Origin: Candidatus Moraniibacteriota bacterium
GTDB lineage: Bacteria; Patescibacteriota; Minisyncoccia; Moranbacterales; UBA1568
Direction: 5' to 3'
DNA: 64,000 nt
Assembly: GCA_017983435.1 (NCBI GenBank)
Contig: JAGOBM010000003.1
Location: 4,786-68,785 of the forward strand
Position 1 is the stretch's first letter. Each line of letters opens with the position of its first letter. The translations under genes and the position numbers were made by a program. A model generated the notes under the pieces. It worked only from the letters and a program-made list of their open reading frames with translations, made no database searches and had not been told where the DNA came from. Shown one piece after another: positions 1,018-62,805 of this stretch.

Positions 1018-1599
1018 ATGCAAAAATTCATGCATCAAGGACTCTACTGGAGCAAAGTGGTGGTGCTCGGCGTCATCCTCGGCATCGGAATACAATTCGC
1101 GGAAGCCTGGACCAACCCAACTGTTTCCCCTCCAGGCGGCAACATCGCTGGACCACTCAATACGGGAATTATAGATCAAATCAAAAACGCCTCTCTCGGT
1201 CTCACCGGAAATTTAGTGATTGGTGCCGGAGGAGGAGGTAATTCCCTTTGCCTCAACGGAGACTGTCGTACCACTTGGCCGAGTGGAGGTGCGACTATTT
1301 CAAATGGCAATTGTGCTGCTGGACAGGTAGTCCAATCTATCAGTCCCACCGGTGTCGTCACTTGCGGTTCAGACAATACCACTATTGGGTCAATCGTTGC
1401 TGGATGCTTCGGACAATGCTCAATGATAATCAATAATCCATCCTGCTCTAACGGACGTCAGTGTTGGGGCGGTGCCACCTACGGCAGAGACGGGATAATA
1501 ACCTGCCCATCCGGCACAAGTGTCATAAGACAGCTTGTGACGATTCCGGATTCTGAAGGCGGCTCATACTCAGCAGATGGTTTTTGCATCAAGCGGTAA
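1018..1599 (+). CDS. hypothetical secreted/membrane-anchored Cys- and Gly-rich protein
   Basis: N-terminal hydrophobic segment, 12 or more Cys, Gly-rich; no recognisable family. Confidence 0.45.
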   Translation: MQKFMHQGLYWSKVVVLGVILGIGIQFAEAWTNPTVSPPGGNIAGPLNTGIIDQIKNASLGLTGNLVIGAGGGGNSLCLNGDCRTTWPSGGATISNGNCAAGQVVQSISPTGVVTCGSDNTTIGSIVAGCFGQCSMIINNPSCSNGRQCWGGATYGRDGIITCPSGTSVIRQLVTIPDSEGGSYSADGFCIKR

Positions 1600-5871: not shown

Positions 5872-6867
5872 CTAATACCCATTGTCCTCAAGCCGGCTGA
5901 AATACATGTCGACATCGCTGATCCACTTCTTGACGCTCTCCCGACTATGACCCTCACAGGAAAACCCGCATTTCCAGAGAATCATCTTTTCTGGCGTATT
6001 GAGCTGCTCGGAATAGACGAGCTTCTCGATTCTTCGCGCGACCGTATCGACCGCATCCTTGCGACTATTGAAACAGGTATGGCCTCCAGTCCCCATCAGA
6101 CGCCGCACTCCGCGATAGCCCCAATAATTGAAGCAGTCCTGACCCTCAAGCACCGGGACCCGCTTCCCCCAATTGCTCTCCTTTTTCGCGATGCTCACCA
6201 AGAATGCCGCAACGGTCCGGTCTTTCTCGAAGATATACGGAAGCATCGGTTCGATTGGATATCCCTTCACCATCTCGGTGATCTTGGTTCGGTATTCCTC
6301 TTCCGCCACTTCGCTGAAATATTCCAAAAAGACGTCTTCCTGCGAAGCGGAGATAGTAGCGGATTCATCTTCGAGAAAAGTCTCGGCCATAGTCTCGGCG
6401 GCATCCGGCTTCTCCTCGGCCAGCGGAGCGGTCTCCTCCTCGATCGCAGCCATATCAGCATCCGACTGAGCCAGCACTCCATGATCAAGCAGCATAAAAG
6501 TCATCGCCGTCATGAATACGCCGAATGCGACTCCACCAAAAACAGAGACATAGAAAGTTTGACGGGAAGAGAGCGCCAGAGCCGGCGTATGCGAGAACAC
6601 TCCACTATCAAAAGCTCGGGTCCGACGCCAGAGCCCGAGAATGTACGCTCTGAGCCCGCTCCACCGATCCCTGAGACTCCGACGTGGTAGCGGATCAAGA
6701 GTCAATTTTTGTGCCACAACCACACCATCCAGCATACGTTGCTGGACCCGTGTTCGATCGATAGATGTCTGCGGCTGCGTCGGAGCCGGATGATGCCGAT
6801 AGGCGATAGCCGGTCTTTCTGACCGTATACCATCCATACCCCCCTGACGCCGTGCTTTGATGTCCAT
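5872..6867 (-). CDS. membrane-anchored protein with a glucosaminidase-like (FlgJ-type) C-terminal domain; putative peptidoglycan hydrolase
   Basis: Internal TM helix and a KKESNWG motif resembling the ESGWG motif of mannosyl-glycoprotein endo-beta-N-acetylglucosaminidases. The assignment is tentative. Confidence 0.4.
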   Translation of the reverse strand: MDIKARRQGGMDGIRSERPAIAYRHHPAPTQPQTSIDRTRVQQRMLDGVVVAQKLTLDPLPRRSLRDRWSGLRAYILGLWRRTRAFDSGVFSHTPALALSSRQTFYVSVFGGVAFGVFMTAMTFMLLDHGVLAQSDADMAAIEEETAPLAEEKPDAAETMAETFLEDESATISASQEDVFLEYFSEVAEEEYRTKITEMVKGYPIEPMLPYIFEKDRTVAAFLVSIAKKESNWGKRVPVLEGQDCFNYWGYRGVRRLMGTGGHTCFNSRKDAVDTVARRIEKLVYSEQLNTPEKMILWKCGFSCEGHSRESVKKWISDVDMYFSRLEDNGY

Positions 6868-21045: not shown

Positions 21046-21783
21046 ATGCCGAAACCGAAGCCCATCATACCAGCACCAGCGGACCCTTCCGCCCCGATGC
21101 GTCTCAACCGCTATCTCGCGCTGCATGGCATCGCCACCCGGCGTGAAGCAGATACTCTGATCGAACAGGGGCGCGTCTTCGTCAACGGACAGAAGGCCGA
21201 GCTCGGCATGCGCGTCACCGATGCCGACGATATCGCCGTCGAGGAGGCCAATCGCCGCAAGCTCGTCTACATCGCCTACTACAAGCCGCGCGGCATCATC
21301 ACGCATTCGCCCCAAGGCGTCAAAGAGCGCGCTATCACCGACATCGTCGAGATGCCAGGCGTCTTCCCGGTCGGCCGGCTCGACAAAGCGTCCGAGGGTC
21401 TCATCATCCTGACCAACGATGGCCGCATCACCGAGCGACTGCTCCATCCCCGTTTCGCGCATGAAAAAGAATATGAGGTCGTGGTCCAAGAATCATTCGA
21501 TCCAAAAAAGCTCGCCGCCCTCGAACAGGGCGTCATGGATCAGGGAGAGCTCCTGACCGCCAAAAAGGCTTTCATCACCGGGAAAAATACGCTTTCTATC
21601 ATTCTGACCGAGGGCAAGAAACACCAGATCCGCCGTATGCTCTCGGCCATCCACCTGACCGTCGTCTCGCTCAAGCGTGTCCGCATCATGCAGGTCCATC
21701 TCGGAGCGCTCAAGCCTGGACAATCGCGTCCGCTCGCCGGCATGGCCCGCGCATCTTTCCTCAACGATCTCGAACTCCGATAA
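21046..21783 (+). CDS. rRNA pseudouridine synthase, RsuA/RluB family
   Basis: S4 domain (MRLNRYLALHGIATRREA) and catalytic GRLDKASEGLIILTNDG. Confidence 0.8.
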   Translation: MPKPKPIIPAPADPSAPMRLNRYLALHGIATRREADTLIEQGRVFVNGQKAELGMRVTDADDIAVEEANRRKLVYIAYYKPRGIITHSPQGVKERAITDIVEMPGVFPVGRLDKASEGLIILTNDGRITERLLHPRFAHEKEYEVVVQESFDPKKLAALEQGVMDQGELLTAKKAFITGKNTLSIILTEGKKHQIRRMLSAIHLTVVSLKRVRIMQVHLGALKPGQSRPLAGMARASFLNDLELR

Positions 21784-21941
21784 AAATTTGGAGCTTCTTT
21801 TTCTTGTCTGATATGCTCAGAGAAGCAAGGAGAAGAAAGATTGCTTTCGGCATTCCCTTGTCTTCCTGTGGATTCTCAGGCATCCAACGGTCGCCAATGA
21901 AACGACCGAAAGCAATCTTTCTCACCAAAAAACAAAATCCT

Positions 21942-22319
21942 ATGCTCATACACATATTCGGCAATCCCGATCTTCCCTGCGACGCGCTCCCCGTCCTGCT
22001 TTTGCCGCGCCTGGCGGAAGCCTTGCCGCAGTACACCTTCCGTTTCACTGATCCCAACGAGCTCGACCTTCCCCGAGAAGGCGAGGACTTCATCGCCATC
22101 GATACGGTCGACGGCCTCAAATCGATACGGGAGATAGGTATCGAGGAGATCGCAGCGCTCAAAGCCAGAGCGACGACCCATGATTTCGATCTTTCATCTT
22201 TCCTCTTGCTCGCGAAGAAACTCCGCCCGGGCATCAGTATCCGTATCATCGGCGTCCCGATGCAGAGCGAAGCGGATACGGCCTTCGCGACCCTAGTCCC
22301 GATTCTCGAAACCCTCTAA
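21942..22319 (+). CDS. hydrogenase maturation endopeptidase (HycI/HybD-like)
   Basis: About 126 aa; N-terminal FGNPDL, AIDTVD and THDFDL positions parallel HycI Glu/Asp/His. Convergent with the hydrogenase genes. Alternative start at 21897. Confidence 0.55.
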   Translation: MLIHIFGNPDLPCDALPVLLLPRLAEALPQYTFRFTDPNELDLPREGEDFIAIDTVDGLKSIREIGIEEIAALKARATTHDFDLSSFLLLAKKLRPGISIRIIGVPMQSEADTAFATLVPILETL

Positions 22320-22387: not shown

Positions 22388-23713
22388 TCAGATCTCCCGT
22401 AGCTTCAACTTGAGGAAGTGCGAAGCGCAGCTCATACACGGATCATAAGCGCGGATAATCTTCTCGCACTCGATACCGAGCTGGTCCCGATCCATCGAAA
22501 GATTCGCCTCGATGAATTCCCCGAGGTCCTTCTCGATCGTAATCTGATTCTGCCCCGTCGGAACGATAACCTCGCCCTTGATCACGATCCCCTTCTCATC
22601 GGTCTCGTACTTATGGTAGAGCGTCCCGCGCGGTGCTTCGACGACGCCGACACAGACCGCTGCCTGAGGCTTGATCTGCTGGAGCGGCTCTTTGACGAAG
22701 GTTGCGTTCGAGAGGATATCGATCGACTCATCCACCGAATGGAGGATGGCGATCGCCTGGGCCAAGCCGTTGTCATGCACATCGTGCGATGGGAACCGCT
22801 TGAGCGCTTCGGCCGCATCGCGCTTCGTGTTCGGATGAAAAGCGTCCTTGTTGAGATTGACACGAGCCAGCGCTCCGACCCGGTAGATCTGGCCATCAAA
22901 AGTATAACCAGAAGCTTCGGAATACGGGATGACGACGTGCTCAAGATGGCTCCGGTATCCGCTCTCATCGCACACCTTGCCATTCATATCCCAAAGTTCC
23001 CCCTCGAGATAGGAGAACGGATCCGACTTGAGACCGATATAATTCGTCTCGCGGACCAGTGAGAACGGGCAGTGCGCGAACAGCTCGATGGCGCGCAGTA
23101 CGGCCGGCCGGATCGCCTTGAGCTCCTCAAGCGATTTGTCCATCTCCGCCTTCTCCGGCACCTTGGCAAATCCTCCCGGCATGAGGAACGGCGCATGCAC
23201 ACTCCGCCCACCCGCCAAGATGGAGAGATGATTGCCGACCGACTTGATATCGAAAGCATCATGCAAGACATCGTGCTGCTTCGGATCATGCTCATCGAAC
23301 TCAAGCAGAGAATCCTTGCCGAAGAAATCCGGCGCGACGAAGACGAAGAGATGGAGCGCATGATCACGGATGATGAGTCCATGATACGCCAGGGTGCGGA
23401 GCAGCTTGGTCTGCTCGGTCGGCACGAGCCCGAAGCCTTTCTCAACCGCTTCGATGCTCGCCGCCAGATGCGCGTTGGAACAGGTGCCGCAGATACGCGC
23501 GAGCATCTGCGGGATAGCGATGATCGGCTTGCCCACCATCGCCTGGGTGAAAAACCGCTTGTATTCATTGATAGCGAACTGCACCGACGTCACCTTGCCA
23601 TCCTCGATCAGGACATCAAGACCGGCCGATCCCTCGATCTTCGTGATCTCTTTGACGCTGAACGAGCTCATTTCCGATACCTGATGCATAGACGAAAAAG
23701 TTACAAGAGACAA
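22388..23713 (-). CDS. [NiFe]-hydrogenase large subunit
   Basis: N-terminal RICGTCSNAH (L1) and C-terminal DPCMSCASHF (L2), with a short cleavable extension after the His; 441 aa. Confidence 0.85.
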   Translation of the reverse strand: MSLVTFSSMHQVSEMSSFSVKEITKIEGSAGLDVLIEDGKVTSVQFAINEYKRFFTQAMVGKPIIAIPQMLARICGTCSNAHLAASIEAVEKGFGLVPTEQTKLLRTLAYHGLIIRDHALHLFVFVAPDFFGKDSLLEFDEHDPKQHDVLHDAFDIKSVGNHLSILAGGRSVHAPFLMPGGFAKVPEKAEMDKSLEELKAIRPAVLRAIELFAHCPFSLVRETNYIGLKSDPFSYLEGELWDMNGKVCDESGYRSHLEHVVIPYSEASGYTFDGQIYRVGALARVNLNKDAFHPNTKRDAAEALKRFPSHDVHDNGLAQAIAILHSVDESIDILSNATFVKEPLQQIKPQAAVCVGVVEAPRGTLYHKYETDEKGIVIKGEVIVPTGQNQITIEKDLGEFIEANLSMDRDQLGIECEKIIRAYDPCMSCASHFLKLKLREI

Positions 23714-23727
23714 ATTACAATCCTGAA

Positions 23728-24231
23728 TTAATCCTTTGTTGGAGCCTCCACGACACCGAACTCAACCAGCGCGTCATTCAGAACCTTGATAAACGCTTCC
23801 TCGGACATCGGACAGCCATTCACTGTGGCATCCACGGTCACCAGCTCATCCAGCTTCTTGGCTTTCTTCCCATAATGGAATTTTTCCAGAAGAAAATGAA
23901 TCTCTTCCTGCACTTCCGGAGGAAACTCGTTGCGCTGAGTCGAAAAATTGCCAGCGACAGCGCAAGACCCGATCGCCACGAGCTTCGTAGCGAGCCCGCG
24001 GATCTCAAGCAGCTTTTCTTCCTGCTCCGGCGAAGCGATCGCCCCCTCGACAAAGGCGACGTCCATCTGATCGATCACGTTCTTCGATTTGAAAACCTTG
24101 GCATAGCGGATATCGAGGAGCGGCAGCCATTCCTGATAATGATCATTCAGATACTCCGCAAACATGACGGTACTATCCTCGCAGCAGGAGAACGAGAACC
24201 ATCCGATACGCAGTTTTTTTCCGGTAGGCAT
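23728..24231 (-). CDS. [NiFe]-hydrogenase small subunit, NuoB-like, single proximal cluster
   Basis: 167 aa with Cys at FSCCED, GSCAVAG and NGCPM, a NuoB/group-4-like 4-Cys pattern; 14 bp upstream of the large subunit. Confidence 0.7.
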   Translation of the reverse strand: MPTGKKLRIGWFSFSCCEDSTVMFAEYLNDHYQEWLPLLDIRYAKVFKSKNVIDQMDVAFVEGAIASPEQEEKLLEIRGLATKLVAIGSCAVAGNFSTQRNEFPPEVQEEIHFLLEKFHYGKKAKKLDELVTVDATVNGCPMSEEAFIKVLNDALVEFGVVEAPTKD

Positions 24232-24314
24232 ACAGGTTCGACGATTAAGCGACTTGATTACGCTTACATTCTACCACTTCTCTTCGGAGCTCACCATAAA
24301 AATACTTAAGAAAA

Positions 24315-24402
24315 GCTCCTGGGCTACGAAAGCAGATTTTTCCCTTGCTATCGCCTCGGAAGTCTCGGGCATCAGGAAAAATCTCTTTCGCAGCCCAGGA
24401 GC
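24315..24402. repeat. long-hairpin repeat, copy 1 (about 29-bp stem; conserved core loop)
   Basis: Arms GCTCCTGGGCTACGAAAGCAGATTTTTCC and GGAAAAATCTCTTTCGCAGCCCAGGAGC enclose the core CTTGCTATCGCCTCGGAAGTCTCGGGCATCA. Confidence 0.6.
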
Positions 24403-24432
24403 ATTCGCTTCAACCGGACCAATACATCCCTA

Positions 24433-24858
24433 TCAGTCATCGCATTTCACGCAGAGACACCCTTCTTTCGTCAGTATCCCTTCAAAATAATCCTTGCCAT
24501 AGTTATAGGTCAGCTCTTCACCAGCCTTGATCTGCCGACGGGACACGATGAATATGCGCCCGCGACGATTGATCGCCTCGCAGTTCGGCCGGCAGGAATG
24601 GTTGATATAGCGGGCCGTGTTCCAGCGCGGACTCCCATCGATATCGACACGCGTGCTGACATTGAAGACATAGCGATTATTGAGCGTATCGCCATGGCTC
24701 GAATGCAGACGATGGCCCACATATTCGATGATGGTCTCCCCCTTTTTGATCGCCTCGAAGGCATAGAGCCCGAGACCGGCGCTCGACCGCTTCACTCGGA
24801 CATCGAATTTTGATTTCGTCGCTTCCATACATTTAAAAAATATCACAGATAAGCACAA
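24433..24858 (-). CDS. SET-domain protein (putative protein-lysine methyltransferase)
   Basis: NHSCRPNC and ELTYNYG motifs plus a post-SET Cys cluster CLCVKC; 141 aa. Confidence 0.8.
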   Translation of the reverse strand: MCLSVIFFKCMEATKSKFDVRVKRSSAGLGLYAFEAIKKGETIIEYVGHRLHSSHGDTLNNRYVFNVSTRVDIDGSPRWNTARYINHSCRPNCEAINRRGRIFIVSRRQIKAGEELTYNYGKDYFEGILTKEGCLCVKCDD

Positions 24859-24951
24859 TCACCGGGTGCGGAAGAGGTTTTTCCTGATGCCCGAGATTTC
24901 CGAAGCGATAGCAAGGGAAAAATCTCTTCCGCACCCGGTGATCCCCAATAG
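24859..24951. repeat. long-hairpin repeat, copy 2 (inverted relative to copy 1)
   Basis: Arms CACCGGGTGCGGAAGAGGTTTTTCC and GGAAAAATCTCTTCCGCACCCGGTG; loop is the reverse complement of the copy-1 core, about 90% identical. Confidence 0.6.
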
Positions 24952-25117
24952 ATCTTTCGTTATCTCGGAAAGCATACCTCCGCCAGGTATTCTGAAAAGA
25001 TACAAGGGCCATTCTATCAGTCATCTCCATTCTTATCAAGAAAAAACGAGACCATCGGAGGATCCCGTTTCTTGCATGACTGCGAATGAGAGTGATTAGA
25101 TCGCCATCTATTTCCTC

Positions 25118-45015: not shown

Positions 45016-46772
45016 GAGAAGGTAAATGCGTATACCGCTGTCCCGGGTGTTTCAAATTCCAGACGCAGCGTGTGTTCACCAGCCACCCCGTTCCCATCAA
45101 AGAGCTCATAAAGCTTCTCAGCATCTACCGACACCCTTCCGTCAATGACATCCCCGCCAGACAGATCCCGCTCAATCACGTTCTGATCCAGAAATACCTT
45201 TACACTCCCCGATGAAGTATCATCCGACGGAGCCATGACCAGAAATACTTTCTTTCCATAAAAATGAATGCTCAGAGTGGCGTTACTTCCGGCGATGGCT
45301 CTTTCAGATTCCACCTTCCAGGCCCCGCTATAAGCAAAATAATGTTTCTTCAAACCAGTCGGCAGAGTAAATGCCTGCATCTCTCCGGTCACTCGCTCCG
45401 GCGATTGGAACCGCTCCATACGGTCGCTCCCCAGATACGTTTCCGGGGTCTGGCTTCTCCCGGGCGTATCGGCCACTATCCCGGTCAAAGTATCAGAACC
45501 CACCGTCCTCCCTGCCTCCTCCAAGAGACTCTGGATCGCTTGCTCTGTTTCTTGATAATTTCCCTCACCGAAATGATATTCGCGTATCCTTCCTTCGCTA
45601 TCTATCAAATAATGCGCCGGCCAATACCGATTATTATAAGCTTGCCAGGTGCCATACCGGTTGTCCTGAGCCACGGGATAATTGATTTTGTATTGCTCCA
45701 GGGCATCAGTGACATTGGCCGTCTTTTTCTCAAACTCAAACTCCGGCGTGTGCACTCCGATCACCACGAATCCCTGGTCTTTGTACTTCTCATACCAGCC
45801 CGTCACATAGGGGAGGGTCCGGATACAATTGATGCAGCTATATGTCCAGAAGTCGACCAATACCACTTTGCCACGCAATTTATCCATAGTCAGTGCCGAG
45901 TCAGTATTGAGCCATTGCTCTATACCCACAAACTCCGGGGCTTGCCCGTACTGAGGAAGATTTTTTTTCATATTTAATTTCGGCTCTTCTTTTTTAAGAA
46001 GCGGATTTTCTCCATCAACGCCCTTGAGTTCATCGAGTTTCTGTTTTACCGTATCGTTTTTTTCCAATCCATTCAGAAAGCTCTCATAATTCGGAAAGGT
46101 ATCCAAGAGCTTCGTCTGGAGCGCCTTATCATACCCAGTATAGATCGCTCCTGCCGCCAGAATCATAATCAGACCGAATACCTGCTGAATATACTTCGTA
46201 TATGGTGCCAGCACTCTGGTCTTCGTCAGTATCTTTTTCCCCAACACAGCCAGGATAAAGAGTGGCGATGCCACGCCGATCACGAACGCCACTGTGATCA
46301 GCACCACCTGAAAGTTGACAGCCTGGGTCGCAGCCAGAGCAGCGATCGTCGCCAGGATAGGACCAGCACAAGGCGACCATACCAGGCCTAAGGCAAACCC
46401 CGTCAGGAAACCGCCCCAGAAACCAGTCCCAGAACTTTGCGTCCACCGTCCGCCGAAAGAAGCGAAGCGGCTGACCATCCCTTCCAGTCGTGCCCCGAGA
46501 GCCGGGATAACAAGGGTCAACCCGAGCAAAGCTATCACGAAAACCGCGAACAGACGCAGAACATCAGGATCAAAAGGAATGATTTGAACCACCCAAGCGA
46601 GCGCGAGCGTCGCCAAGAGAAAACTCGTAGCCAGACCCGTGACGATACCGAGCGGCTTCCGCTCCCCGCCGGTCGCCCCGGATGATAACACGATAGGCAG
46701 TATCGGCCAGATACACGGCGCAAAAATCGTCACGACCCCTGATAGGAAGGCAAAAAGAACGAGAATGGTCAT
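45012..46772 (-). CDS. CcdA/DsbD-type membrane domain fused to a TlpA/ResA-like thioredoxin domain
   Basis: N-terminal CcdA (FAPCIWP), redoxin domain WTYSCINCIRTLP; 586 aa. Confidence 0.75.
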   Translation of the reverse strand: MTILVLFAFLSGVVTIFAPCIWPILPIVLSSGATGGERKPLGIVTGLATSFLLATLALAWVVQIIPFDPDVLRLFAVFVIALLGLTLVIPALGARLEGMVSRFASFGGRWTQSSGTGFWGGFLTGFALGLVWSPCAGPILATIAALAATQAVNFQVVLITVAFVIGVASPLFILAVLGKKILTKTRVLAPYTKYIQQVFGLIMILAAGAIYTGYDKALQTKLLDTFPNYESFLNGLEKNDTVKQKLDELKGVDGENPLLKKEEPKLNMKKNLPQYGQAPEFVGIEQWLNTDSALTMDKLRGKVVLVDFWTYSCINCIRTLPYVTGWYEKYKDQGFVVIGVHTPEFEFEKKTANVTDALEQYKINYPVAQDNRYGTWQAYNNRYWPAHYLIDSEGRIREYHFGEGNYQETEQAIQSLLEEAGRTVGSDTLTGIVADTPGRSQTPETYLGSDRMERFQSPERVTGEMQAFTLPTGLKKHYFAYSGAWKVESERAIAGSNATLSIHFYGKKVFLVMAPSDDTSSGSVKVFLDQNVIERDLSGGDVIDGRVSVDAEKLYELFDGNGVAGEHTLRLEFETPGTAVYAFTFS

Positions 46773-46858
46773 ATAGTGTTTTAAAAAAATATTACCAAGA
46801 GGAACAGCTCTGCAGAAACTGTCCCGGCTTCGTACTACTTTCTACGCCAATAGCCTCA

Positions 46859-47413
46859 TTATTTCACTTTGGTAAGCAACTCGCTCAATCCCTCGCTCCC
46901 AGACCATTTCGCGATCATATTTCCAGACGCGTCAACCTGCACCAGTGTGTGCTGATAGGTGACACCATACTGTTTCTTAAGATCCGCATTCTTGTCGTAA
47001 TCCACATCAAGAATCAGCACGTTCTGCGGAATCCGACTGAGATTCGCTTTGATATCGGCATCCAAAGCACGACAGGTCGGACACCACGAGGCACGGAAGA
47101 AGAGCACTACTTTGCCATCTTTCGCAAAAGCAATCTTTGATGCGTCATATGAGGCATATTGCCCACCCTTGATCATCACATCGCTTTGCTTCATCATGGC
47201 ATCTTCTTTGACCATCGTCTCCGGCTTTTTCTCCATCATGGCCTCAGGTTGCTGCATAGCCTCTTCTTTTTTCTCCATCGCTCCTTTTTCAGCCGTGACC
47301 TTTTCTTCCATCATGGCCTTGTCTTGCATAGCCTGTTGATTGGACGTATACCACCAGCCGCCAAGGGCAACAGCTATTCCCAACACAATCACTCCCATTA
47401 TCATTTTATTCAT
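46859..47413 (-). CDS. thioredoxin-family protein, membrane-anchored
   Basis: FFRASWCPTCRALD. Confidence 0.75.
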   Translation of the reverse strand: MNKMIMGVIVLGIAVALGGWWYTSNQQAMQDKAMMEEKVTAEKGAMEKKEEAMQQPEAMMEKKPETMVKEDAMMKQSDVMIKGGQYASYDASKIAFAKDGKVVLFFRASWCPTCRALDADIKANLSRIPQNVLILDVDYDKNADLKKQYGVTYQHTLVQVDASGNMIAKWSGSEGLSELLTKVK

Positions 47414-47464
47414 ATCGTTTCACCTCCTTTCATATGTTGATTTATACTCGAGTCATTTTTATAT

Positions 47465-47830
47465 CTAATAGTGCTTCTCGGCATAGTAGCGTCCCAGTAT
47501 TTTCGCCAATACCATCCCGGTCAGAACCAGCGGCAACCATGGATCGATCTTATGTGAAAGCGCCTGCACAATAATTCCCGTAAGCAGGAGTGTCCCGCCA
47601 GCGGTGTAGGCGAATCGAGTACCGATAAAGCGATGGAGCTGCTCACGCTCATCCATCACACTCTCCTTCCATAAAAACATAGCAAAGATCGAAAACAGAG
47701 TGACGATCAACCCGAGCAGCGTCATATGGACAGCGTCCGTCATCCAAAAACCGAACGGGTTGACAAACCACACGAGAAAAATAACCAGGAGCACTGACAC
47801 GATTTTTTCTGAAAAGATCTTCGACAACAT
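47465..47830 (-). CDS. small multi-TM membrane protein (DUF2178-like partner of the XRE regulator)
   Basis: 121 aa, 4 TM; 2-bp gap to the upstream HTH gene. Confidence 0.45.
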   Translation of the reverse strand: MLSKIFSEKIVSVLLVIFLVWFVNPFGFWMTDAVHMTLLGLIVTLFSIFAMFLWKESVMDEREQLHRFIGTRFAYTAGGTLLLTGIIVQALSHKIDPWLPLVLTGMVLAKILGRYYAEKHY

Positions 47831-47832
47831 AC

Positions 47833-48039
47833 TTATGCTTTAATGGTAAATATCTTCTCCATGGGAACACAAAAATATTTTGCTATCTTGAGCGCCAAGA
47901 GCACCGAGGGAGTATAATTCCCTTTCTCGAGAGCGATAATCGTCTGGCGCGTAACACCCACGGCCTGTGCAAGCTGTTCCTGGGTGAGCCCTCGCATCTT
48001 CCTCAAATCTTCTATTCTATTTTCGACCATTTCCTGCAT
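47833..48039 (-). CDS. XRE-family helix-turn-helix transcriptional regulator
   Basis: [29 protein letters not shown]. Confidence 0.8.
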
Positions 48040-48042
48040 ACA

Positions 48043-48066
48043 ATATGTAAAACTGACTTTACATAT
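48043..48066. promoter_or_regulatory. perfect palindrome ATATGTAAA-N6-TTTACATAT upstream of the XRE gene (candidate operator); a further half-site CTTTACATAT at about 48112
   Basis: 9-bp inverted repeat about 5 bp upstream of the XRE start codon. Confidence 0.45.
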
Positions 48067-48198
48067 TCATTCTAGACTATTCACACACAATGTCAAGCTT
48101 ACTTTACATATTTTTTCTCTCAAAATTCACGTATATCTTAGATAACAAAAAAACCGCCCTCATTACTGAGAGCGGCTACGTGATTTTAAGCCAGTTCT

Positions 48199-48585
48199 TT
48201 ATCCTTCTACTTCAACCTTGAATCCACCATAAGCCATGCGCTTCATATCGACAGGCATCACCATATCTTTATATTCTTCCGCCTTCTCGCCCATCTCTTC
48301 CATCACCTTGGCATTGACTTCGTCTCGATGCTCTTTGGAGTTGAAGACGATAAATGAGAACCAAACCGTCTCATCACTGGTTGCTCCAGTCATTTCAGGA
48401 AATGCGCGTGTCTTTTCGTCACCCATTTCCTGAGGAGCAAGATCATCTCCGCGGCACTCATAGTATTCAAGTGCACCATATTTCATCCAGGCATCGCGAC
48501 CACCTTCTGCCATTTTCTTGTATTCTTCAGCTTTGTCTTTTGGAACCACCAGCACGAATCCATCCACATATTTTCCTTCGTTCAT
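48199..48585 (-). CDS. DUF1428-family protein
   Basis: VDGFVLVVPKDKAEEYKKMAE...YGALEYYEC. Confidence 0.6.
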   Translation of the reverse strand: MNEGKYVDGFVLVVPKDKAEEYKKMAEGGRDAWMKYGALEYYECRGDDLAPQEMGDEKTRAFPEMTGATSDETVWFSFIVFNSKEHRDEVNAKVMEEMGEKAEEYKDMVMPVDMKRMAYGGFKVEVEG

Positions 48586-48640
48586 ACGCTTAACGCTAAA
48601 AATTACCTTTCTAGTATATCAGGCCTCCTCTATGGTGTAC

Positions 48641-48674
48641 AAAAAATAGGCTTAAATAAGCCTATTTTTATTTG
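48641..48674. terminator. bidirectional terminator hairpin AGGCTTA-AA-TAAGCCT with A/T flanks
   Basis: Downstream of the DUF1428 gene and directly followed by the att-like repeat. Confidence 0.55.
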
Positions 48675-48716
48675 CTTCGACGGCTGGAACACTCACTGCT
48701 CTCCGCCAGCTGGCGG
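48675..48716. repeat. degenerate copy of the tRNA-Asn 3' end (CTTCGACGGCTGGAA) plus the 14-bp palindrome CCGCCAGCTGGCGG
   Basis: 16 of 18 nt match TTGGCTCCGACGGCTGGA, the tRNA-Asn 3' end at 57931. The palindrome is also present at about 52677 and 53218. Confidence 0.45.
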
Positions 48717-48968
48717 ATGCGCTCTATAGGGCTTTCCACCTCGGCTTCGCCTTAGCGAGACGGGCCGCCCTTCTAGTCCTCGGAAGACCTCGGTCACCCC
48801 AAACGGGAAACTCCTGTTTCCCGACCCCTGCCTACCGGCAGGCAGGCCTTCCCGTTCGAATCCAACCGCTTTGAATAAATACAAAAAAGGCGCCCCAATG
48901 GACGCTCTTTTTGCATATGCTCCGAGCGATGAAAGAAGTTCGAACCGCCATCAAAAGCTCTACATTCA

Positions 48969-50051
48969 CTACTTTCTAAGCAGATCAAAAAATGCCCTAT
49001 GGAAATAAAGTCTTTCTCTGCCGATTTTTTCACTTTTGAGCAGGCCTATCCTTTCAAGCTCTACCAGATATTTTCCTGCAGTTTTTTCTTTCACGATTCC
49101 AGCATCGACAAGAAACTTTCTCTTGGAATACGGCAACTGAAAGAGAGTGTTTACCAGTTCTTTCGAATAGATATTCGGCGCCTTTTCTTTGATCATCTGC
49201 TCAGTCGATTCCATTAGAGAGCAGATATCATGGATCTTTTGCTCTGTATACTTTGCGGTCTGCTCCACAGCGTCCAGCATATATAAAATCCACGATTCCC
49301 ATTCCTCTCTTTCCGTCACTCCGCGCAACTTCACATAATAATCACTCTTATTCTCCAATATATATTTACTAAGATACAGGATAGGATGTTCCAAGAGACC
49401 CGTAAGAACGAGGAAGAGGATATTCAAAATACGTCCCGTCCTTCCGTTTCCATCATGAAAAGGATGAATAGACTCAAATTGATAGTGCAGAACCGCCATC
49501 TTCACCAAAGGATCTATTCCGTCCTTCTGATCATTTATGTACTGTTCCAAATTCTTCAGTTTCTCAAGAATAACAGCCTCTCCTTCCGGTGGCGTGTACA
49601 CAATCTCTCCCGTGGCAGGATTGGCAATTTTTGTCCCAGGAATCTTTCGAATACCTCCGTCCGTCTGTTTGATAGCCTGCATCATCTCTATGAGAACTCT
49701 AGCACTGATAAATCCGTTCTCGCGTATAAAGCCATAGCCGTACCACAATGCTTTCGGGTAAGAAATAACTTCTTTTAAATTTGGATCTGTGACGCTTTCC
49801 AATGCTAACGACTGGTAGAGCTCATCATTCGTGGTGACAATATTTTCAATTTCCGAACTCAACTTCGCTTCCTGAAGAATAACCGCATTCGCAAGCAGAG
49901 ATTCATTTGGCAATCTTTTGTTCGATGCATCAAGAGCAGCGAGAGCGGCTCTAGCCCCTATCGCTTTTTTCAAAATAGCTGCGGTTTCTAATTCCTTCAG
50001 GGGCGGAAGGAGTGGTAAATCGTTATATGGTTTCTGACGATCAAAAGACAT
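48969..50051 (-). CDS. Fic-family protein (putative AMPylator)
   Basis: HPFHDGNGRTGR Fic motif; 360 aa; lower-GC gene. Confidence 0.85.
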   Translation of the reverse strand: MSFDRQKPYNDLPLLPPLKELETAAILKKAIGARAALAALDASNKRLPNESLLANAVILQEAKLSSEIENIVTTNDELYQSLALESVTDPNLKEVISYPKALWYGYGFIRENGFISARVLIEMMQAIKQTDGGIRKIPGTKIANPATGEIVYTPPEGEAVILEKLKNLEQYINDQKDGIDPLVKMAVLHYQFESIHPFHDGNGRTGRILNILFLVLTGLLEHPILYLSKYILENKSDYYVKLRGVTEREEWESWILYMLDAVEQTAKYTEQKIHDICSLMESTEQMIKEKAPNIYSKELVNTLFQLPYSKRKFLVDAGIVKEKTAGKYLVELERIGLLKSEKIGRERLYFHRAFFDLLRK

Positions 50052-50422
50052 ATATTTCTTTTAATACTTATAGGGTTCTTTGCTATTTTGATAATAGTAC
50101 ATACGGGCAATAAAGTAAAGTAAATGCCCGTATTCGTTTAATACGGGCATTCAATGCCCCTACCATAAAAATGCAGGCATTTATACAAAAATCATGCCTC
50201 AATCAATAAAAATCCAATGACGTTCGAACTGATTTTATAGCATAAAAGAGCCAAAATATGGCTCTTTTATGAACTAGCTCCCCTTAGTGGATGAACTTAG
50301 AACTTTAGATTGGAGAAGGATTGGGAAGATGGTAACAGAAATGGAGCGGGTTTTAGTGTAAAAATTTTTGAAGCCGCTGGGTGATACCATGCGGCCTCTG
50401 TATTCGCGCCCCGTTCGGACGC

Positions 50423-50692
50423 CTAGTTGGTCTTCATCTTGGCCATGTAGATCATGGTGCTGTGGCCGTTGATGCCGAACTCGGTCTGGATGCGGAAAGT
50501 AACGAATCCTTCACCGAGCTTCTGCTTGATCGTCTCTTCCCAGCTGGGGCCAAAGTAGCCAGCCCAGAACTCTGCCACCTGCGTCAGGTCCAGGTTCTGG
50601 TTTGCGATGATCGTGAGCAGCTGCTCGGGATTTTCGACACCACCGCGCAGAGCTTGTTCGATGACTTCGCGAGAAACGCCTTGCATGTTCAT
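50423..50692 (-). CDS. hypothetical small protein with atypical GC-rich codon usage
   Basis: 89-aa ORF; GC3-rich, unlike the AT-rich flanks. Confidence 0.35.
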   Translation of the reverse strand: MNMQGVSREVIEQALRGGVENPEQLLTIIANQNLDLTQVAEFWAGYFGPSWEETIKQKLGEGFVTFRIQTEFGINGHSTMIYMAKMKTN

Positions 50693-50794
50693 CTCCTTGT
50701 GAGAACTTTCCCTTTCAGCCGGGAACGTGGCCGTTGCTCAGTCAGAACTTGCAACTATGAAGTATAGCACCTTTCACGTCCGGTGTCAATATAA

Positions 50795-50830
50795 AAACAT
50801 AAATAGAGGCTCATATAAGCCTCTATTTGG
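50795..50830. terminator. bidirectional terminator hairpin AGAGGCT-CATATA-AGCCTCT
   Basis: Perfect 7-bp stem with A/T flanks. Confidence 0.55.
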
Positions 50831-51040
50831 AACTTGCTCCGCCTACTGAACACTATTAGAACCTCTATCCAGGAAGACAAGGCGTCAAAGCTCTACTACT
50901 TTGGCTTGAAAAGGTTTATGAAATGAATTACCTCGCAGCAAACTCCGAGGAATTCTCTTGAATTAAGGGCGGCTCTTATCCGTATTTTGTACCCCCCTTC
51001 AGAGTACCGTATTTTCATATCGCCTATTTTGTATCTTTCA

Positions 51041-51478
51041 CTAGAGTTGATCTATAGCGCTCTTCATCTCTGCGACAAGCGCCCGGACATCACCCTCGGA
51101 CAGTACCGTACGGACCGTGTTGGCATGATTCAAATCGCCCAGCCGCGTATTGGGAATGAGGTGATAGTGCAAATGTTCCACACTCTTGGCTCCACTTTTC
51201 CCCTCCCGAACCATGAGAGAAAAGTCCTCATATCCGAGATAGCGGAGGATGCGGGAACTTTTCTGAACCAAATCCCAAATATCACCCCACTCCTCCACTC
51301 CGATATCGAAAAAGGATTTCCGATGCTCTTTGGGAATGATAAGAAGATGGTGTTTGTGATATGGAGCGATCGCATAGGTGACATAGGCTGTCTCATTCTC
51401 AATCAACCGACGATCATCGGAAGCACAGAACGGACACGTCCCCACAGGAAGTGCTTGTACGTATTCGGCGTACTTCAT
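51041..51478 (-). CDS. HIT-family (histidine triad) protein
   Basis: HLHYHLIP histidine triad, 145 aa. Confidence 0.8.
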   Translation of the reverse strand: MKYAEYVQALPVGTCPFCASDDRRLIENETAYVTYAIAPYHKHHLLIIPKEHRKSFFDIGVEEWGDIWDLVQKSSRILRYLGYEDFSLMVREGKSGAKSVEHLHYHLIPNTRLGDLNHANTVRTVLSEGDVRALVAEMKSAIDQL

Positions 51479-51541
51479 ACTGGAACAGTCATACTAAGAG
51501 TGTAGGGTATCCTTCGATACATTTCTAGTATACCACTAGTT

Positions 51542-52543
51542 TCAACCATTGTTTCCATGAGCAGAGAACCATTGACCTTCGCTGCTCTTTTTGAGAACTT
51601 TGCCCGTCGGAATAGAGGCGGAGTGGTAGAAATAATCAAAAACTTTGCCAAGGGTAATGACAGGAACATCGGGAATAACATGCGCACGGACCAGAGGAAG
51701 ATTCCCAAACGGCACTGATGGCAACAGGTGATGTTCAAAATGATACCAGGTATGATGGGGCAGAAATAAGGCCCGCTGCCATACAGTGGCATAAAAACGG
51801 TGCGTACCCGGAGTGCCGACATGTTCAGTCCAAACCCTCAGTCGGAAAACTGCAAAACAGGACGTGAGGAGAGAGAATATCCAAATTCCAAATACCCAAA
51901 GCATACCAGCGTACCAGAAAACACCCAGAATAAGCCCCCAGTACAGAAACATCTGGCTCTCTATGGGAACGTCTTTGCCCCCTTGTCCAGAAAGCGTGTC
52001 TTCTGTCTTGGTATCGAGAGCGCCATGAACATACCTCTTACCGAAAAACTGCAAAATGGTTCTTCTCTTATACCATACGATTCCGATACCCGTTAAGTCG
52101 CTCAGGATGATGCCTAGGAGTCGGACAGGCGAAATGGGTATATCCCAGGCTGGCGCCTCCAGAAACTTGCTCTCCAGCTCTGGATCTCTTTCCGTACCAA
52201 GGAATCGATGGTGACGGAAGTGATACTCCCGATATTCCCCAAGGGGGAGAAAAATCGGCCAGCTCGCCAACGCTCGTGTCAAAAAATCGTTCAGCTTCAG
52301 ATTATTCGTTATGAGCCAGTGGGCACCATCATGGGAAAGAATGCCCAGCGCGTGTTGGCGTGTACCGATGACAGCAATCGCAAAGAAAGCCGCCCACCAG
52401 GTCTGAAATGAAAACACAAAAACATAGGCCATGAGAATGACAGACCAATCGAAAAATACATTTCCGAGCCAGCGCCAGATATTCTTGTGGCCTAGCTGAG
52501 GCTGAGCAAGAATGGAGTCGCCCGATAATGACCGCTCTTTCAT
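51542..52543 (-). CDS. membrane fatty-acid desaturase family protein
   Basis: Three His boxes (HDGAHW, HRFHH-like YHFRHHRF, FEHHLLP); multi-TM. Confidence 0.8.
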   Translation of the reverse strand: MKERSLSGDSILAQPQLGHKNIWRWLGNVFFDWSVILMAYVFVFSFQTWWAAFFAIAVIGTRQHALGILSHDGAHWLITNNLKLNDFLTRALASWPIFLPLGEYREYHFRHHRFLGTERDPELESKFLEAPAWDIPISPVRLLGIILSDLTGIGIVWYKRRTILQFFGKRYVHGALDTKTEDTLSGQGGKDVPIESQMFLYWGLILGVFWYAGMLWVFGIWIFSLLTSCFAVFRLRVWTEHVGTPGTHRFYATVWQRALFLPHHTWYHFEHHLLPSVPFGNLPLVRAHVIPDVPVITLGKVFDYFYHSASIPTGKVLKKSSEGQWFSAHGNNG

Positions 52544-52657
52544 ACGTTATCCGCTATTCACTCTGACACACTGATTTTAGCTGCTATCACAAAATGACGC
52601 AAAGGATTTCAGAGGAGTAAACCAGCTTATCGTAGGTTTTCACTTTCATGCAGCGTA

Positions 52658-52708
52658 GCAACAAAAAACAAGGCTTCCGCCAGCTGGCGGATATGGCCTT
52701 GTTTTTAA
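52658..52708. repeat. copy B of the GCAACAAAAAACAAGGCTT terminator-type repeat, with the CCGCCAGCTGGCGGATATG insert in its loop
   Basis: 19-nt identity with the tRNA-Asn-proximal terminator at 57894. Confidence 0.5.
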
Positions 52709-52779
52709 CTGCCCGCCTAGATTACCCCCTTCAGTATGCCGGGTCTCGCCTTCGCTTTTTTATATGCTAAAATACGCAT

Positions 52780-53187
52780 ATGAATACTATTCAGAATATA
52801 AAAAATGGTAGTACTCTCCCCGAAGAAAAACCGGGAGCGCCTATCTACCCTGAAGACGTTGGCCTCGGCAGTATTGGGGAAGAGGCGGCCAGCAACCTTC
52901 CCGATCATCTTCAAAAAATAGAGGGGAGAATGAAGAAAGATAATGTCTGGTCGCCTGTTCAGACAGAAAGCGACACCCGATTTATGCCACTTCCTGAGTG
53001 GATAACGCTTGTGATGGTTCCAAGGGATACAATGAACTTAGAAAAACTTCTTCTACCGGGAAATTATTGTGTCGGCGGCATGGCAGCATATGAACAAAAA
53101 GCCGGGGCTTTCCCTAACCTATCACCAGAACTTATGAAACTTTTTGAAGAATATGAGGAAATGCTGGCAAACCTGAGAAAAATATGA
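52780..53187 (+). CDS. hypothetical protein
   Basis: 135-aa ORF bracketed by repeat copies B and C. Confidence 0.4.
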   Translation: MNTIQNIKNGSTLPEEKPGAPIYPEDVGLGSIGEEAASNLPDHLQKIEGRMKKDNVWSPVQTESDTRFMPLPEWITLVMVPRDTMNLEKLLLPGNYCVGGMAAYEQKAGAFPNLSPELMKLFEEYEEMLANLRKI

Positions 53188-53198
53188 GTATTTTTTGA

Positions 53199-55286: not shown

Positions 55287-55291
55287 ATGTA

Positions 55292-55858: not shown

Positions 55859-55871
55859 ATAATTTTGACAA

Positions 55872-60546: not shown

Positions 60547-60700
60547 ACCGTTGTTTGCTTACGACATTATTTTACAAAAAAATACGGACCGACTGCCGGC
60601 CGCCTCAATACTCATGAGTGGGGAGCATACCAAAGATTGATAAAAATTGAAAGTCTGTCCCCTCAGAGACCAATGAGGTTTTTCCTGCTGCCTGACTTTT

Positions 60701-60781
60701 CCAGAAAGATACAATAGACTTTTCCCTCGCTATCGCCTCGGAAGTCTCGGGCAGCGGAAAAAATCCATTGTATCTTTCTGG
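60701..60781. repeat. long-hairpin repeat, copy 3 (same conserved core, different covarying stem), plus a partial inverted copy at about 60675-60700
   Basis: Arms CCAGAAAGATACAATAGACTTTTCCC and GGAAAAAATCCATTGTATCTTTCTGG enclose the core TCGCTATCGCCTCGGAAGTCTCGGGCAGC. Confidence 0.6.
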
Positions 60782-60792
60782 AATCTAATCCG

Positions 60793-62610: not shown

Positions 62611-62805
62611 ATATTTCGTCTTTCGACGGTAGCACACAATCGCGTATCCGTCATTACTCAAAACCGAGAGGGGAAACCGCGTCATCGCTTAGCTTCAAAG
62701 GAGTTTTTCCGATGCCGTGTTCCGACGCCAAGCAAGGAAAAAATTCTTTGAAGCTAAACGATTCCTGGACAAAACAAAAACCGCCTCGCGGCGGCTCTGA
62801 TCAGT

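Follow-up and report, generated by a model that had tools for sequence, protein, structure and literature searches.

The two long hairpins that flank a SET-domain gene in this Candidatus Moraniibacteriota genome belong to a previously undescribed family of palindromic intergenic repeats, a class of elements that is itself already known. The family has 13 distinct copies at 12 loci in four genomes: four in the window (the whole 64-kb stretch of DNA analysed here) and nine in three other uncultured genomes. We think it probable that the hairpins are lineage-restricted, non-autonomous insertion repeats, similar to the MITEs, ERICs and REPINs, that reside in a few Moranbacteria-like genomes of the CPR. 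They reveal nothing particular about the SET-domain gene and are not a SET-specific device.

The copies in the window are W1 and W2, which surround SET, and W3 and W4, which surround dnaG (Table 1). A sequence-only reading of this DNA had counted two copies; all four were found with a covariance model. Its span for W1 (24315-24402) is reproduced by the model to within a nucleotide, while its end for W2 (24951) lies about 7 nt too far. As it proposed, the two elements are mutually inverted, with 62-nt arms that are 92% complementary, and the stems, estimated at about 25-29 bp, are 28-29 bp each. The predicted RNA folds are very stable (-57.9 kcal/mol, z -8.6 for W1; -55.5 kcal/mol, z -8.5 for W2), with RNA z-scores of -6.7 to -8.6 for the pair and no equally stable sequence among 200 shuffles, and a 35-nt core pattern has two matches in the window, compared with 0.00 expected. 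The better-folding strand, which we call the R strand, is the minus strand for W1, sense to SET and 30 nt past its stop codon. For W2 it is the plus strand, antisense to SET; this copy falls within the 5' UTR predicted for SET, 29 nt ahead of the start codon. W3 has its R strand in the sense direction and lies 9 nt past the stop codon of dnaG, on the upstream side of rpoD; this copy is enriched in AT, yet all of its positions are paired. W4 lies upstream of dnaG with its R strand antisense, has a shortened apical hairpin, and is found 13 nt downstream of a classical terminator at 62798-62777.

Table 1. Coordinates of the hairpin copies and neighbouring features within the window.
Feature	Position	Strand	Details
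Extended -10-like block TGGTAGAAT	24268..24276	-	upstream of hydrogenase small-subunit gene, downstream of W1
T-rich tract TTTTCTTAAGTATTTTT	24297..24313	-	directly 3' of W1 on the gene strand; read from sequence
Hairpin copy W1	24314..24402	-	89 nt; covariance model R2 109.2 bits, E 2e-21
SET-domain gene	24433..24828	-	131 aa from ATG; Pfam PF00856, E 5e-23
Hairpin copy W2	24857..24944	+	88 nt; R2 model 100.3 bits
Predicted SET promoter, TTGATA-17-TAGAAT with upstream TG	25011..25039	-	10/12 matches
Ordinary intrinsic terminator of upstream 226-aa gene, GAAACGGGATC...GGTCTCGTTTTTT	25041..25072	-	read from sequence
Hairpin copy W3	60697..60784	-	R2 model 86 bits; fold -49.7 kcal/mol
Hairpin copy W4	62684..62763	+	R2 model 61.5 bits; fold -38.4 kcal/mol

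The copies outside the window were found on sequences L001-L005 and L008, and a degenerate ortholog of W2 on L029 is additional to the 13. Two further sequences, L018 and L019, match the window at 99.9-100% identity, with three SNPs, all outside the hairpins. A pattern search of metagenomes gave 13 matches, of which eight (L006, L007, L010, L012-L014, L016 and L017) have no hairpin and were set aside as chance matches. W1 and the copy on L008 are 90% identical across 84 nt, and the best coding match between their two genomes reaches 71.6% at the nucleotide level and 62-65% at the amino-acid level; the copies are better conserved than genes between genomes. Copies are 80-90 nt long and none holds a complete ORF, although spurious read-through ORFs cross them; a search of the peptides of these ORFs against a collection of 5.8 billion proteins returned four candidates, none of them relevant. 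At the gathering threshold Rfam 15 matched nothing other than a tRNA elsewhere in the window, and under permissive settings the best match scored 22 bits against a threshold of 80, to a generic long hairpin. Our literature search found no match to the sequence, nothing that connects the CPR with REP or MITE elements, and no description of a small mobile CPR repeat. Viral contigs gave no match either, and a viral origin was rejected. A hammerhead ribozyme was also rejected, as the sequence reads CUGAUGC instead of CUGAUGA and lacks a three-way junction.

The conserved loop noted in the sequence-only reading is not an unstructured one. On the R strand it forms a small folded apical domain, which runs from a GA through a UGC/GCR helix and a 4x4 GA-rich internal loop to a helix of 3-5 bp, capped in 11 of the 13 copies by U(UCCG)A. 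The inner apical hairpin differs, and covaries, between copies. The apparent invariance of the core among the first matches was an artefact of the first search pattern, which demanded a conserved core. The compensatory changes in the stems, for which a covariance model had been suggested as a check, are real: across the 13 copies 96.9% of cells are paired, and 24 of the 35 pairs have changed on both sides (82 such cells). None of 500 shuffles scored as high, and slid alignments reached 42-56%. The 29-bp arms taken separately are 96.8% paired, with one extra base in the 3' arm in six of the 13 copies.

Conservation falls in a step along the stem: the mean between-copy identity is 0.71 over the 17 inner base pairs and 0.42 over the 12 outer ones (0.91 and 0.50, respectively, for W1 and W2). 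The repeat is least conserved at its ends. A consensus for the arms can still be recognised (TCTCCTGGGCCGCGAAAGAGGTTTTTCC). The outer stems do remain complementary, as first described, but it is not correct that they are unrelated. Unrelated loci in different genomes share them, e.g. L008 and L005c (0.88), L004 and L005b (0.83) or W1 and L008 (0.75), and therefore they travel with the element in at least seven of the 13 copies. The opposite extreme is a pair from one genome, L004 and L002a, whose inner stems (0.91) and apical domains (0.97) are nearly identical and whose outer stems agree at the level of chance (0.25).

The two strands of the repeat are not equivalent. Standard pairs make up 96.9% on the R strand and 88.1% on the other, G.U wobbles occupy 19 columns compared with five for A.C (binomial p 0.003), and the R strand folds better in every copy. 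This advantage is kept under both RNA and DNA parameters, so energetics is not decisive between RNA and ssDNA. Since the wobble pairs are one-sided, some single-stranded stage is likely. The bias is equal in sense and antisense copies. Pairing has also been maintained over time: the old, AT-enriched copies W3, W4 and L002b are all still fully paired, four compensated pairs separate the orthologs L003 and L005a, and one apical pair of W2 was first C-G, then U.G as read on the transcribed strand (the state that L029 retains), and is now U-A.

Comparison with relatives that lack the inserts, as the sequence-only reading had proposed, located empty sites for all four window copies. W1 is missing from the orthologous spacer of L023, L026 and L030-L034, W2 is missing in L023 and L030, and W3 is missing from the dnaG-rpoD spacer of L020. 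Empty-site alignments are available for W1, W2, W3 and W4, and the sites of the last three show no earlier hairpin; the whole hairpin is therefore the inserted unit. No copies were present in 133 kb taken from 8-9 relatives in which the SET-hydrogenase gene order is conserved. Elsewhere in the family, L005c sits in a 165-nt segment that is absent from the syntenic L003, L001 and L005b lie on opposite strands in a rearranged spacer, and partial copies adjoin full ones. Decay is evident in L029, a close relative, where the W2 ortholog has a broken stem with one arm replaced between flanks that are about 95% identical. We also considered whether a terminator in L031 is a deletion derivative of the repeat and rejected this, the similarity being no greater than expected at random (p = 0.59). 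Among 30 window ORFs scanned against Pfam there was no transposase, reverse transcriptase or integrase, and a crude tblastn search of 306 kb with approximate RAYT/TnpA (Y1 transposase) queries gave nothing at E < 0.6.

W1 was thought to occupy the terminator position of SET, and the relatives agree. L030, L031 and L032 carry an ordinary SET terminator with a T8 run at the position of the W1 tract, just before a conserved TGGTGAGC block. In these alignments W1 stands where SET had its ancestral terminator, and it retains the old T-tract, with which it would make up a terminator-like unit for SET. A simple terminator scan made no call at this site because it accepts only loops of 3-8 nt. The suggestion that W1 lies in the 5' leader of the hydrogenase operon is probably incorrect, as W1 is upstream of the -10-like block, which appears as TGGTAAAAT or TGGTAGAAT in L023 and L031. 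This block is a putative promoter of the operon; a promoter scan made no call there. On the other side of the gene, the architecture of the predicted SET promoter recurs in L023. The 226-aa gene upstream has kept an intact terminator of its own, distinct from W2, which aligns with the terminator in L023, L029 and L030; the simple terminator scan did not call this one.

Across the family the orientation relative to the neighbouring genes is random, the R strand being sense at six loci and antisense at six, and most copies lie 9-44 nt past a stop codon. The flanks of the 13 copies contain no common promoter, target motif, target duplication or direct repeats, and the boundary dinucleotides have none in common. 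A T-run is absent beside 12 of the 13, only W1 having one, and the terminator scan made no call at any copy. Intact terminators adjoin W2, W4 and L008. Pairs of copies that bracket a gene are commoner than chance (p about 0.01), in divergent, convergent or direct orientation. As the members of a pair are not each other's nearest relatives, simple local hopping does not explain the clustering. A role in lagging-strand priming, as for sso-like elements, was rejected: W1-W4 point in both directions although they share a single replichore in which the GC skew is uniform.

Several known systems resemble this repeat. MITEs are defined as elements of 70-300 bp with inverted repeats of 15-30 bp and no coding capacity (PMC3733652), and ours, at 80-90 nt with 29-bp inverted arms, no coding capacity and positions beside genes, is much alike. 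The sequence-only reading took a conserved loop on variable stems to be the reverse of the MITE pattern; this is not truly so, because the arms are inverted repeats with a consensus of their own. Like the bacterial MITEs with long hairpin folds (ERIC, NEMIS/Correia, RUP and Nezha), the copies are dispersed between genes in either orientation, form co-transcribed hairpins and vary in presence between relatives: there are 13 dispersed copies, and empty sites for W1-W4 and L005c. In ERIC the central region is also well conserved and compensatory evolution has been reported. The differences are that no target-site duplication is found at the boundaries of the 13 copies, the termini are least conserved, the apical domain is structured and covarying, and the host is a CPR bacterium. 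The repeat has no sequence similarity to any of the described families in the literature and Rfam searches, and no cognate IS or transposase with matching termini was seen in the window segments scanned or, by crude tblastn, in 306 kb.

REPINs are mobilised by RAYTs and carry invariant 16-mers at both ends with a variable middle; the ends of classical MITEs and REPINs are what the transposase reads (PMC3116915). Our repeat shares with them a predicted hairpin of about 90-100 nt in ssDNA or mRNA, compensation between arms, G.T pairs, an extragenic and clustered distribution, and decayed singlets beside intact units (PMC3116915, PMC3733652); G.T pairing has been reported for REP stems in particular (PMC3733652). 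However, the conservation gradient runs in the opposite direction, the flanks and ends contain no unpaired GTAG or CGTC tag, and the copy number is low, at four per 64 kb. The copies also resemble intrinsic terminators, being hairpins just past stop codons, in the case of W1 with a T-tract in the SET terminator place. Yet a 29-bp stem topped by an apical domain of 30 nt greatly exceeds the ordinary terminators found in this genome (e.g. 62798-62777), half of the copies face the wrong way for strand-specific features, and the U-tract that directly follows a GC-rich terminator hairpin has a counterpart only at W1. The attC sites are imperfect palindromes that fold as strand-specific single-stranded hairpins with an extrahelical base, their structure conserved over sequence. 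Their base (the R and L boxes) is conserved and their centre variable, and they form arrays in one orientation beside intI. In contrast, the stem base of our repeat is variable, its orientations are mixed, and the scanned genes include no integrase.

We propose that a repeat of about 89 nt has spread into intergenic spacers, with entire hairpins inserting. The apical domain and inner stem are constrained in sequence, presumably as the part that the mobilising machinery recognises, and the outer stem is mainly required to pair. Because the wobble bias is seen regardless of the orientation of copy and gene, we infer that this constraint acts on a single-stranded intermediate (ssDNA or RNA) in the life cycle of the repeat itself, and mobilisation may be performed in trans by an enzyme encoded elsewhere in the genome. 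Inserted copies would be co-transcribed with neighbouring genes as very stable RNA hairpins; W1 would have entered or replaced the SET terminator and now be the hairpin before the old T-tract. Evidence against a mobile repeat is the lack of a target-site duplication or conserved terminal motif, the fact that the ends vary most, the paired clustering that local hopping leaves unexplained, and the negative searches for a mobilising enzyme in the scanned window segments and, by crude tblastn, in 306 kb. Furthermore, the pairing of the old AT-rich copies and the compensated differences between L003 and L005a suggest selection in place, i.e. a function at the level of the host, or concerted evolution of the arms.

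Such a host function is the essence of an alternative that we regard as unlikely, in which the hairpins are beneficial cis-acting RNAs (3'-end stabilisers, terminators, RNase III sites or insulators) and insertion was only their means of arrival. The apical domain, with its UNCG-type tetraloop and GA-rich internal loop, would then bind a protein. UNCG-type loops are a classical RNA feature, and the near-universal cap, the very strong covariation with tolerated G.U pairs, the distances to stop codons, the retained T-tract of W1, the persistent pairing of old copies and the stepwise change in the W2 apical pair are all in keeping with this. The wobble-bearing strand, however, is antisense to the local transcript at six of the 12 loci with equal bias in both classes, a T-run follows W1 only, W2, W4 and L008 sit beside intact classical terminators, and 8-9 relatives do without the repeat at the same genes. 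Of the structured cis-RNA family first suggested, the hairpin family with covariation stands, and the cis-RNA part is weakened by the 6:6 orientation and the stem lost in L029. The other initial suggestion, an element that targets the loops of terminator hairpins, is borne out in that the copies are insertional. A mobile module comprising only the inner 60-66 nt or so, the outer stems being host sequence, seems improbable to us all the same. The conservation step and the L004/L002a comparison fit it, and so does W1: its outer stem and T-tract occupy exactly the position of the SET terminator in L030-L032, 30 nt past the stop codon in either case, and the stems match at 6-7 of 9-10 positions. 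Against this, unrelated loci of different genomes have outer stems in common, no hairpin is present at the empty sites of W2, W3 and W4, and adjoining classical terminators are untouched; loop targeting is not general, W1 alone coinciding with an ancestral terminator.

The context-independent wobble pairing of the R strand and the structured apical domain would also be expected if the copies were independent small-RNA genes, or retro-copies of a single structured small RNA, with transcription from the R strand. We consider this very improbable, as the R strands have no common upstream promoter or downstream terminator, that of W2 would need transcription coming out of the coding sequence of SET, the 30 window ORFs scanned by Pfam include no reverse transcriptase, and Rfam gave no match. 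Hardly credible is a composite mobile unit or recombination cassette, bounded in the style of attC sites or IS elements, with SET inside. Inverted copies do flank one small gene, and pairs that bracket a single gene recur, but dnaG is bracketed as well, pair orientations are mixed, and no integrase or transposase was found in the scanned window ORFs. SET has 1812 homologs at E <= 1e-20; the 120 listed are 60-97% identical, and those of them that carry a name come from Moranbacteria. The SET-hydrogenase gene order is kept in at least eight relatives, all without hairpins, so SET is a resident gene rather than cargo. This conserved synteny and the bracketing of dnaG rule out SET as the cargo of a composite element, and the arrangement around SET is not special, as it had first appeared to be.

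CPR (Patescibacteria) genomes are tiny, and we know of few small mobile repeats that have been reported from them. Near relatives differ in which copies they carry, and these differences mark how the genome of an uncultured lineage has changed recently. The family also offers natural material for the study of compensatory evolution, and its strand signature is clear. W1 exemplifies a repeat that seizes a terminator slot, and W2 the entry of one into a 5' UTR. If the hairpin tip is read by a mobilising activity, the element would be non-autonomous in a way that is new in its mechanism.

A more specific form of this idea, to which we give a rather low probability, is a tip-recognised hairpin replicator, in which the apical domain of one strand, as RNA or ssDNA, would be the binding site of an enzyme or ribonucleoprotein that sets the boundaries of the element by structure or by distance along the stem of about 29 bp. 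Tip recognition would explain ends that are free but paired, the missing target duplication and terminal motif, and the mosaic modules. We group with it, at the same low probability, the possibility that inverted copies in the 5' and 3' UTRs of one mRNA (SET, dnaG) pair with each other, circularising the transcript or marking it for RNase III. The predicted duplex of about 84 bp has an energy of -127.9 kcal/mol, compared with -107.1 kcal/mol for two local hairpins.

The SET-domain gene of the window is flanked by two long hairpins, W1 and W2, which are copies of one repeat family. In the reading best supported by our results, this family probably consists of palindromic insertion repeats of the MITE, ERIC or REPIN kind, non-autonomous and confined to one lineage. 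The two hairpins are mutually inverted, with 62-nt arms that are 92% complementary. Each has a stem of 28-29 bp; RNA z-scores lie between -6.7 and -8.6, and no fold among 200 shuffles equalled their stability. A 35-nt core pattern matches the window twice, against 0.00 expected. Fold, shuffles and pattern counts thus bear out the two inverted hairpins described in the sequence-only reading, which located both and placed the end of the second slightly too far.

Coordinates of the hairpin copies and other features (CM, found by covariance models)
Feature	Sequence	Position	Strand	Remarks
SET-domain gene, 131 aa	window	24433-24828	minus	Pfam PF00856, E 5e-23
Hairpin W1	window	24314-24402		beside SET gene
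Hairpin W2	window	24857-24944		other side of SET gene
Hairpin W3	window	60697-60784		CM
Hairpin W4	window	62684-62763		CM
Hairpin copy	L005	2361-2449		CM
Hairpin copy	L005	883-972		CM
Hairpin copy	L002	5460-5539		CM
Hairpin L002a	L002	4940-5031		
Decayed partial copies (solo arms, arm + apical fragments)	L004	about 1320-1372		
	L005	2300-2325		
	L001	155-175		
	L003	6730-6745		
SET-hydrogenase genes	window	22388-24828		
Predicted SET promoter	window	25039-25011		10/12 matches
Predicted SET transcript	window	25003-24296		
Palindrome upstream of dnaG	L020	about 6425-6465		17-bp, perfect
Separate long hairpin	window	21832-21923		
ORF overlapping it	window	21761-22249		no Pfam match
Low-GC segment	window	46000-58005		Fic/DOC, DUF1428, fatty-acid desaturase, inositol-1-phosphate synthase, NUDIX, GT4 glycosyltransferase, NTP-transferase
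tRNA gene	window	57934-58005		only one in the window

The first search used a degenerate core pattern; as this pattern demanded the loop sequence, its matches agree in the loop by construction. It recovered four copies in the MAG CAZOKB01, and 13 matches in metagenomes, of which five are true copies (three of them distinct) and the remaining eight are chance matches without a hairpin. The viral contigs searched with this pattern gave no match. For this reason covariance models were built, and they recovered copies whose apical parts have diverged (CM in the table); a full-sensitivity model scan puts the number in the window at exactly four. All searches together give 13 distinct copies, spread over 12 loci of four genomes. 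A fifth contig, L029, additionally carries a degenerate ortholog of W2.

Homologs of the window proteins bear the names Moranbacteria or Moraniibacteriota, therefore the host is a CPR bacterium; the contig was found again at 99.9-100% identity in the JAHZTL01 and JAHZTK01 assemblies. CAZOKB01 (contigs L001-L004), which has at least four copies, carries the label 'uncultured Bdellovibrionales'. It nevertheless has this family in common with the Moranbacteria-matching window, and also pilin-like genes (55-59% identity). A mistaken label is possible, as is movement of the element between lineages. Compensatory changes, G.T pairs and effects on neighbouring transcripts are familiar features of palindromic intergenic repeats. 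The hairpin family is a new member of this class: no Rfam family matches it, and neither its sequence nor a comparable CPR repeat was found in the searchable literature. Its structural and evolutionary signal is unusually clean, and its host lineage is poorly explored.

The better-folding strand of every copy, which we call the R strand, is the complement of the strand on which a core was originally described. It forms a stem of 29 bp, whose 3′ arm is one base longer in 6 of 13 copies, and then an apical domain that consists of GA, a UGC/GCR helix, a 4x4 GA-rich internal loop and a short capped helix. The cap is U(UCCG)A in 11 of the 13; nine copies close it with C-G, three with U-A and one with G-C. 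What had been taken for a plain conserved loop is therefore a folded domain, whose inner helices in L005c and L002b differ wholly in sequence yet still pair. The proposed compensatory covariation is confirmed. In a model-based alignment of the 13 copies, itself fitted to the structure, 96.9% of cells hold standard pairs and 24 of 35 pairs changed on both sides (82 cells). For each of five covariation measures, no column shuffle out of 500 came as high, and sliding the structure by 1-3 columns lowers pairing to 42-56%. MAFFT alignments agree, with both-side changes at 16/35 and 19/29 pairs.

Conservation rises towards the tip: mean pairwise identity is 0.42 for the outer 12 bp of the stem and 0.71 for its inner 17 bp, and reaches 0.85 for the apical domain, with a step near stem pair 15. 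L004 and L002a, from one genome, agree at 0.91 (inner) and 0.97 (apical) and at only 0.25 in the outer stem, while L008 and L005c agree at 0.88 in the outer stem and only 0.63 in the apical hairpin. Outer stems are common to unrelated loci and genomes (W1/L008 0.75, L004/L005b 0.83; consensus TCTCCTGGGCCGCGAAAGAGG) and therefore belong to the repeat itself in seven copies or more. The L002a outer stem is unrelated to every other; each of its arms contains the self-complementary octamer CTGATCAG and so could fold on itself. The AT-enriched copies W3, W4 and L002b (GC 0.43, 0.43 and 0.34) depart from the consensus mostly by transitions, with pairing still full.

The two strands are not equivalent. 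Read on the complementary strand, the same alignment gives 88.1% standard pairs, against 96.9% on the R strand. G.U pairs are found in 19 columns and A.C mismatches in 5 (p = 0.003, counting each column once). Of the G.U columns, three have been inherited by the majority of copies, but some 17 more events each occur in a single copy or column. The R strand lies sense to neighbouring genes in 6 cases and antisense in 6, and faces both ways inside one replichore of uniform GC skew, therefore a mutation bias linked to replication or transcription cannot produce this signature. We infer a strand-specific single-stranded intermediate behind it. The R-strand advantage is kept with DNA energy parameters (1.6-5.3 kcal/mol), so energetics cannot separate RNA from ssDNA. 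An earlier report of G.T pairing in REP stems took it to hint at a function in RNA (PMC3733652).

Every copy is intergenic, most lying 9-44 nt downstream of a stop codon. Flanks oriented by the R strand have no common promoter, T-run, target motif or duplication. The second window pair, W3 and W4, flanks dnaG, with rpoD directly downstream and W4 13 nt beyond a classical terminator. Bracketing is therefore neither specific to SET nor a sign of cargo. Nothing in these results links the element functionally to the SET gene. Two bracketing pairs among four copies have a chance p of about 0.01, and such pairs recur in L002, L003/L001 and L005; copies therefore cluster locally. Pair members are divergent, convergent or direct in orientation and are not mutual closest relatives.

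Comparison with relatives identifies the copies as insertions. SET homologs are widespread in Moranbacteria (60-97% identity among the matches listed), and the gene lies directly upstream of [NiFe]-hydrogenase small and large subunit genes in at least eight Moranbacteria-like genomes (the window's, L023, L026 and L030-L034); a functional link of the SET methyltransferase with the hydrogenase is conceivable. This adjacency is kept in contigs L023-25, L026-28 and L030-L034, where the spacers measure 52-191 nt, and scans of about 120 kb and 133 kb from these relatives gave 0 copies by either covariance model. The closest that still shares extended gene order is L023/L024, whose hydrogenase large subunit is 91% identical. 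Upstream of SET, relatives have a terminator, a TTGATA-N17-TAGAAT-type promoter and a short leader; the window retains the terminator and the predicted promoter, and W2 is an additional block inside the leader. In L030, L031 and L032 the SET-hydrogenase spacer holds an ordinary terminator (e.g. CGCTTCTGAA-AAG-TTCAGGAGCG, then T8), which stops just short of a conserved promoter-like TGGTGAGC...TGGTAGAAT block. W1 starts 30 nt from the SET stop codon, the relatives' terminator distance, and is followed by TTTTCTTAAGTATTTTT and that same block. The window has no separate SET terminator, therefore W1 entered or replaced it, and presumably works as the terminator now. The L031 terminator was considered as a deletion remnant of the element and rejected as such, because its similarity is at chance level (p = 0.59). 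Both dnaG spacers of the relative L020, which is without the family, lack a large hairpin. Upstream of its dnaG is another palindrome, GTGTACATATTTTACTACGGTCGTAGTAAAATATGTACA; similar positions in other lineages may be occupied by hairpin repeats of their own.

Copies also turn over. L003 and L001 are syntenic with L005 at about 78-85% nucleotide identity, and one copy is common to both regions (L003 vs L005a, four compensated pair differences). L005c lies within a 165-nt segment absent from L003, while L001 and L005b occupy opposite strands of a spacer which is rearranged and contains a solo arm as well. No more than a few tens of bases separate decayed partial copies from intact ones, and at L004, L001 and L003 they adjoin full copies; this suggests that insertion or rearrangement recurred at these spots. 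In L029, whose SET gene is 97% (protein) and 91% (nucleotide) identical to the window's and whose flanks are about 95% identical, the W2 ortholog keeps its apical domain; one arm is mostly replaced, with indels, and the stem is therefore lost. One covarying apical pair is C-G in the family, C.A in L029 (U.G on the transcribed strand) and U-A in W2; L029 preserves the intermediate, a compensatory change caught in place.

An insertion repeat of this kind would be recognised through its apical domain and inner stem and mobilised by an enzyme acting in trans; no transposase was found by Pfam on 30 window ORFs or by tblastn of 306 kb with approximate queries. By the definition used here (PMC3733652), the element is MITE-like in its size and inverted arms, in coding for nothing and in its polymorphic dispersion, but differs in having no target duplication. 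REPINs have invariant ends and a variable middle with compensation (PMC3116915), whereas the conservation gradient here runs the opposite way. The main rival, that the hairpins are retained for an RNA-level host function, would explain why old copies are still paired, why orthologs carry compensated differences and why W1 occupies a terminator slot; we consider it unlikely, given the 6:6 orientation of strand-specific features, the relatives without the element and the broken L029 copy.

The sequence-only reading also proposed insertion into terminator loops. W1 and the conservation step within the stem fit this, but the empty sites of W2-W4, the untouched adjoining terminators and the outer stems common between copies do not, leaving it a minority possibility and a very improbable one. 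Slightly less doubtful is that the hairpins are replicators recognised at the tip with boundaries set by structure, or that paired inverted copies form a long 5′-3′ mRNA duplex. In the predicted SET transcript, W2 (5′ UTR) is complementary to W1 (3′ end), and their duplex of ~84 bp has an MFE of -127.9 kcal/mol, against -107.1 for two local hairpins; co-transcriptional folding should favour the latter.

The separate long hairpin of the window combines a perfect stem of 19 bp (GAAGAAAGATTGCTTTCGG / CCGAAAGCAATCTTTCTTC) with an apical part of ~50 nt. It reaches -48 kcal/mol on the minus strand, and the family model gives it only 14 bits. The low-GC segment (0.43-0.49, vs 0.53-0.58 elsewhere) terminates at the tRNA gene, and may be a genomic island integrated beside it.
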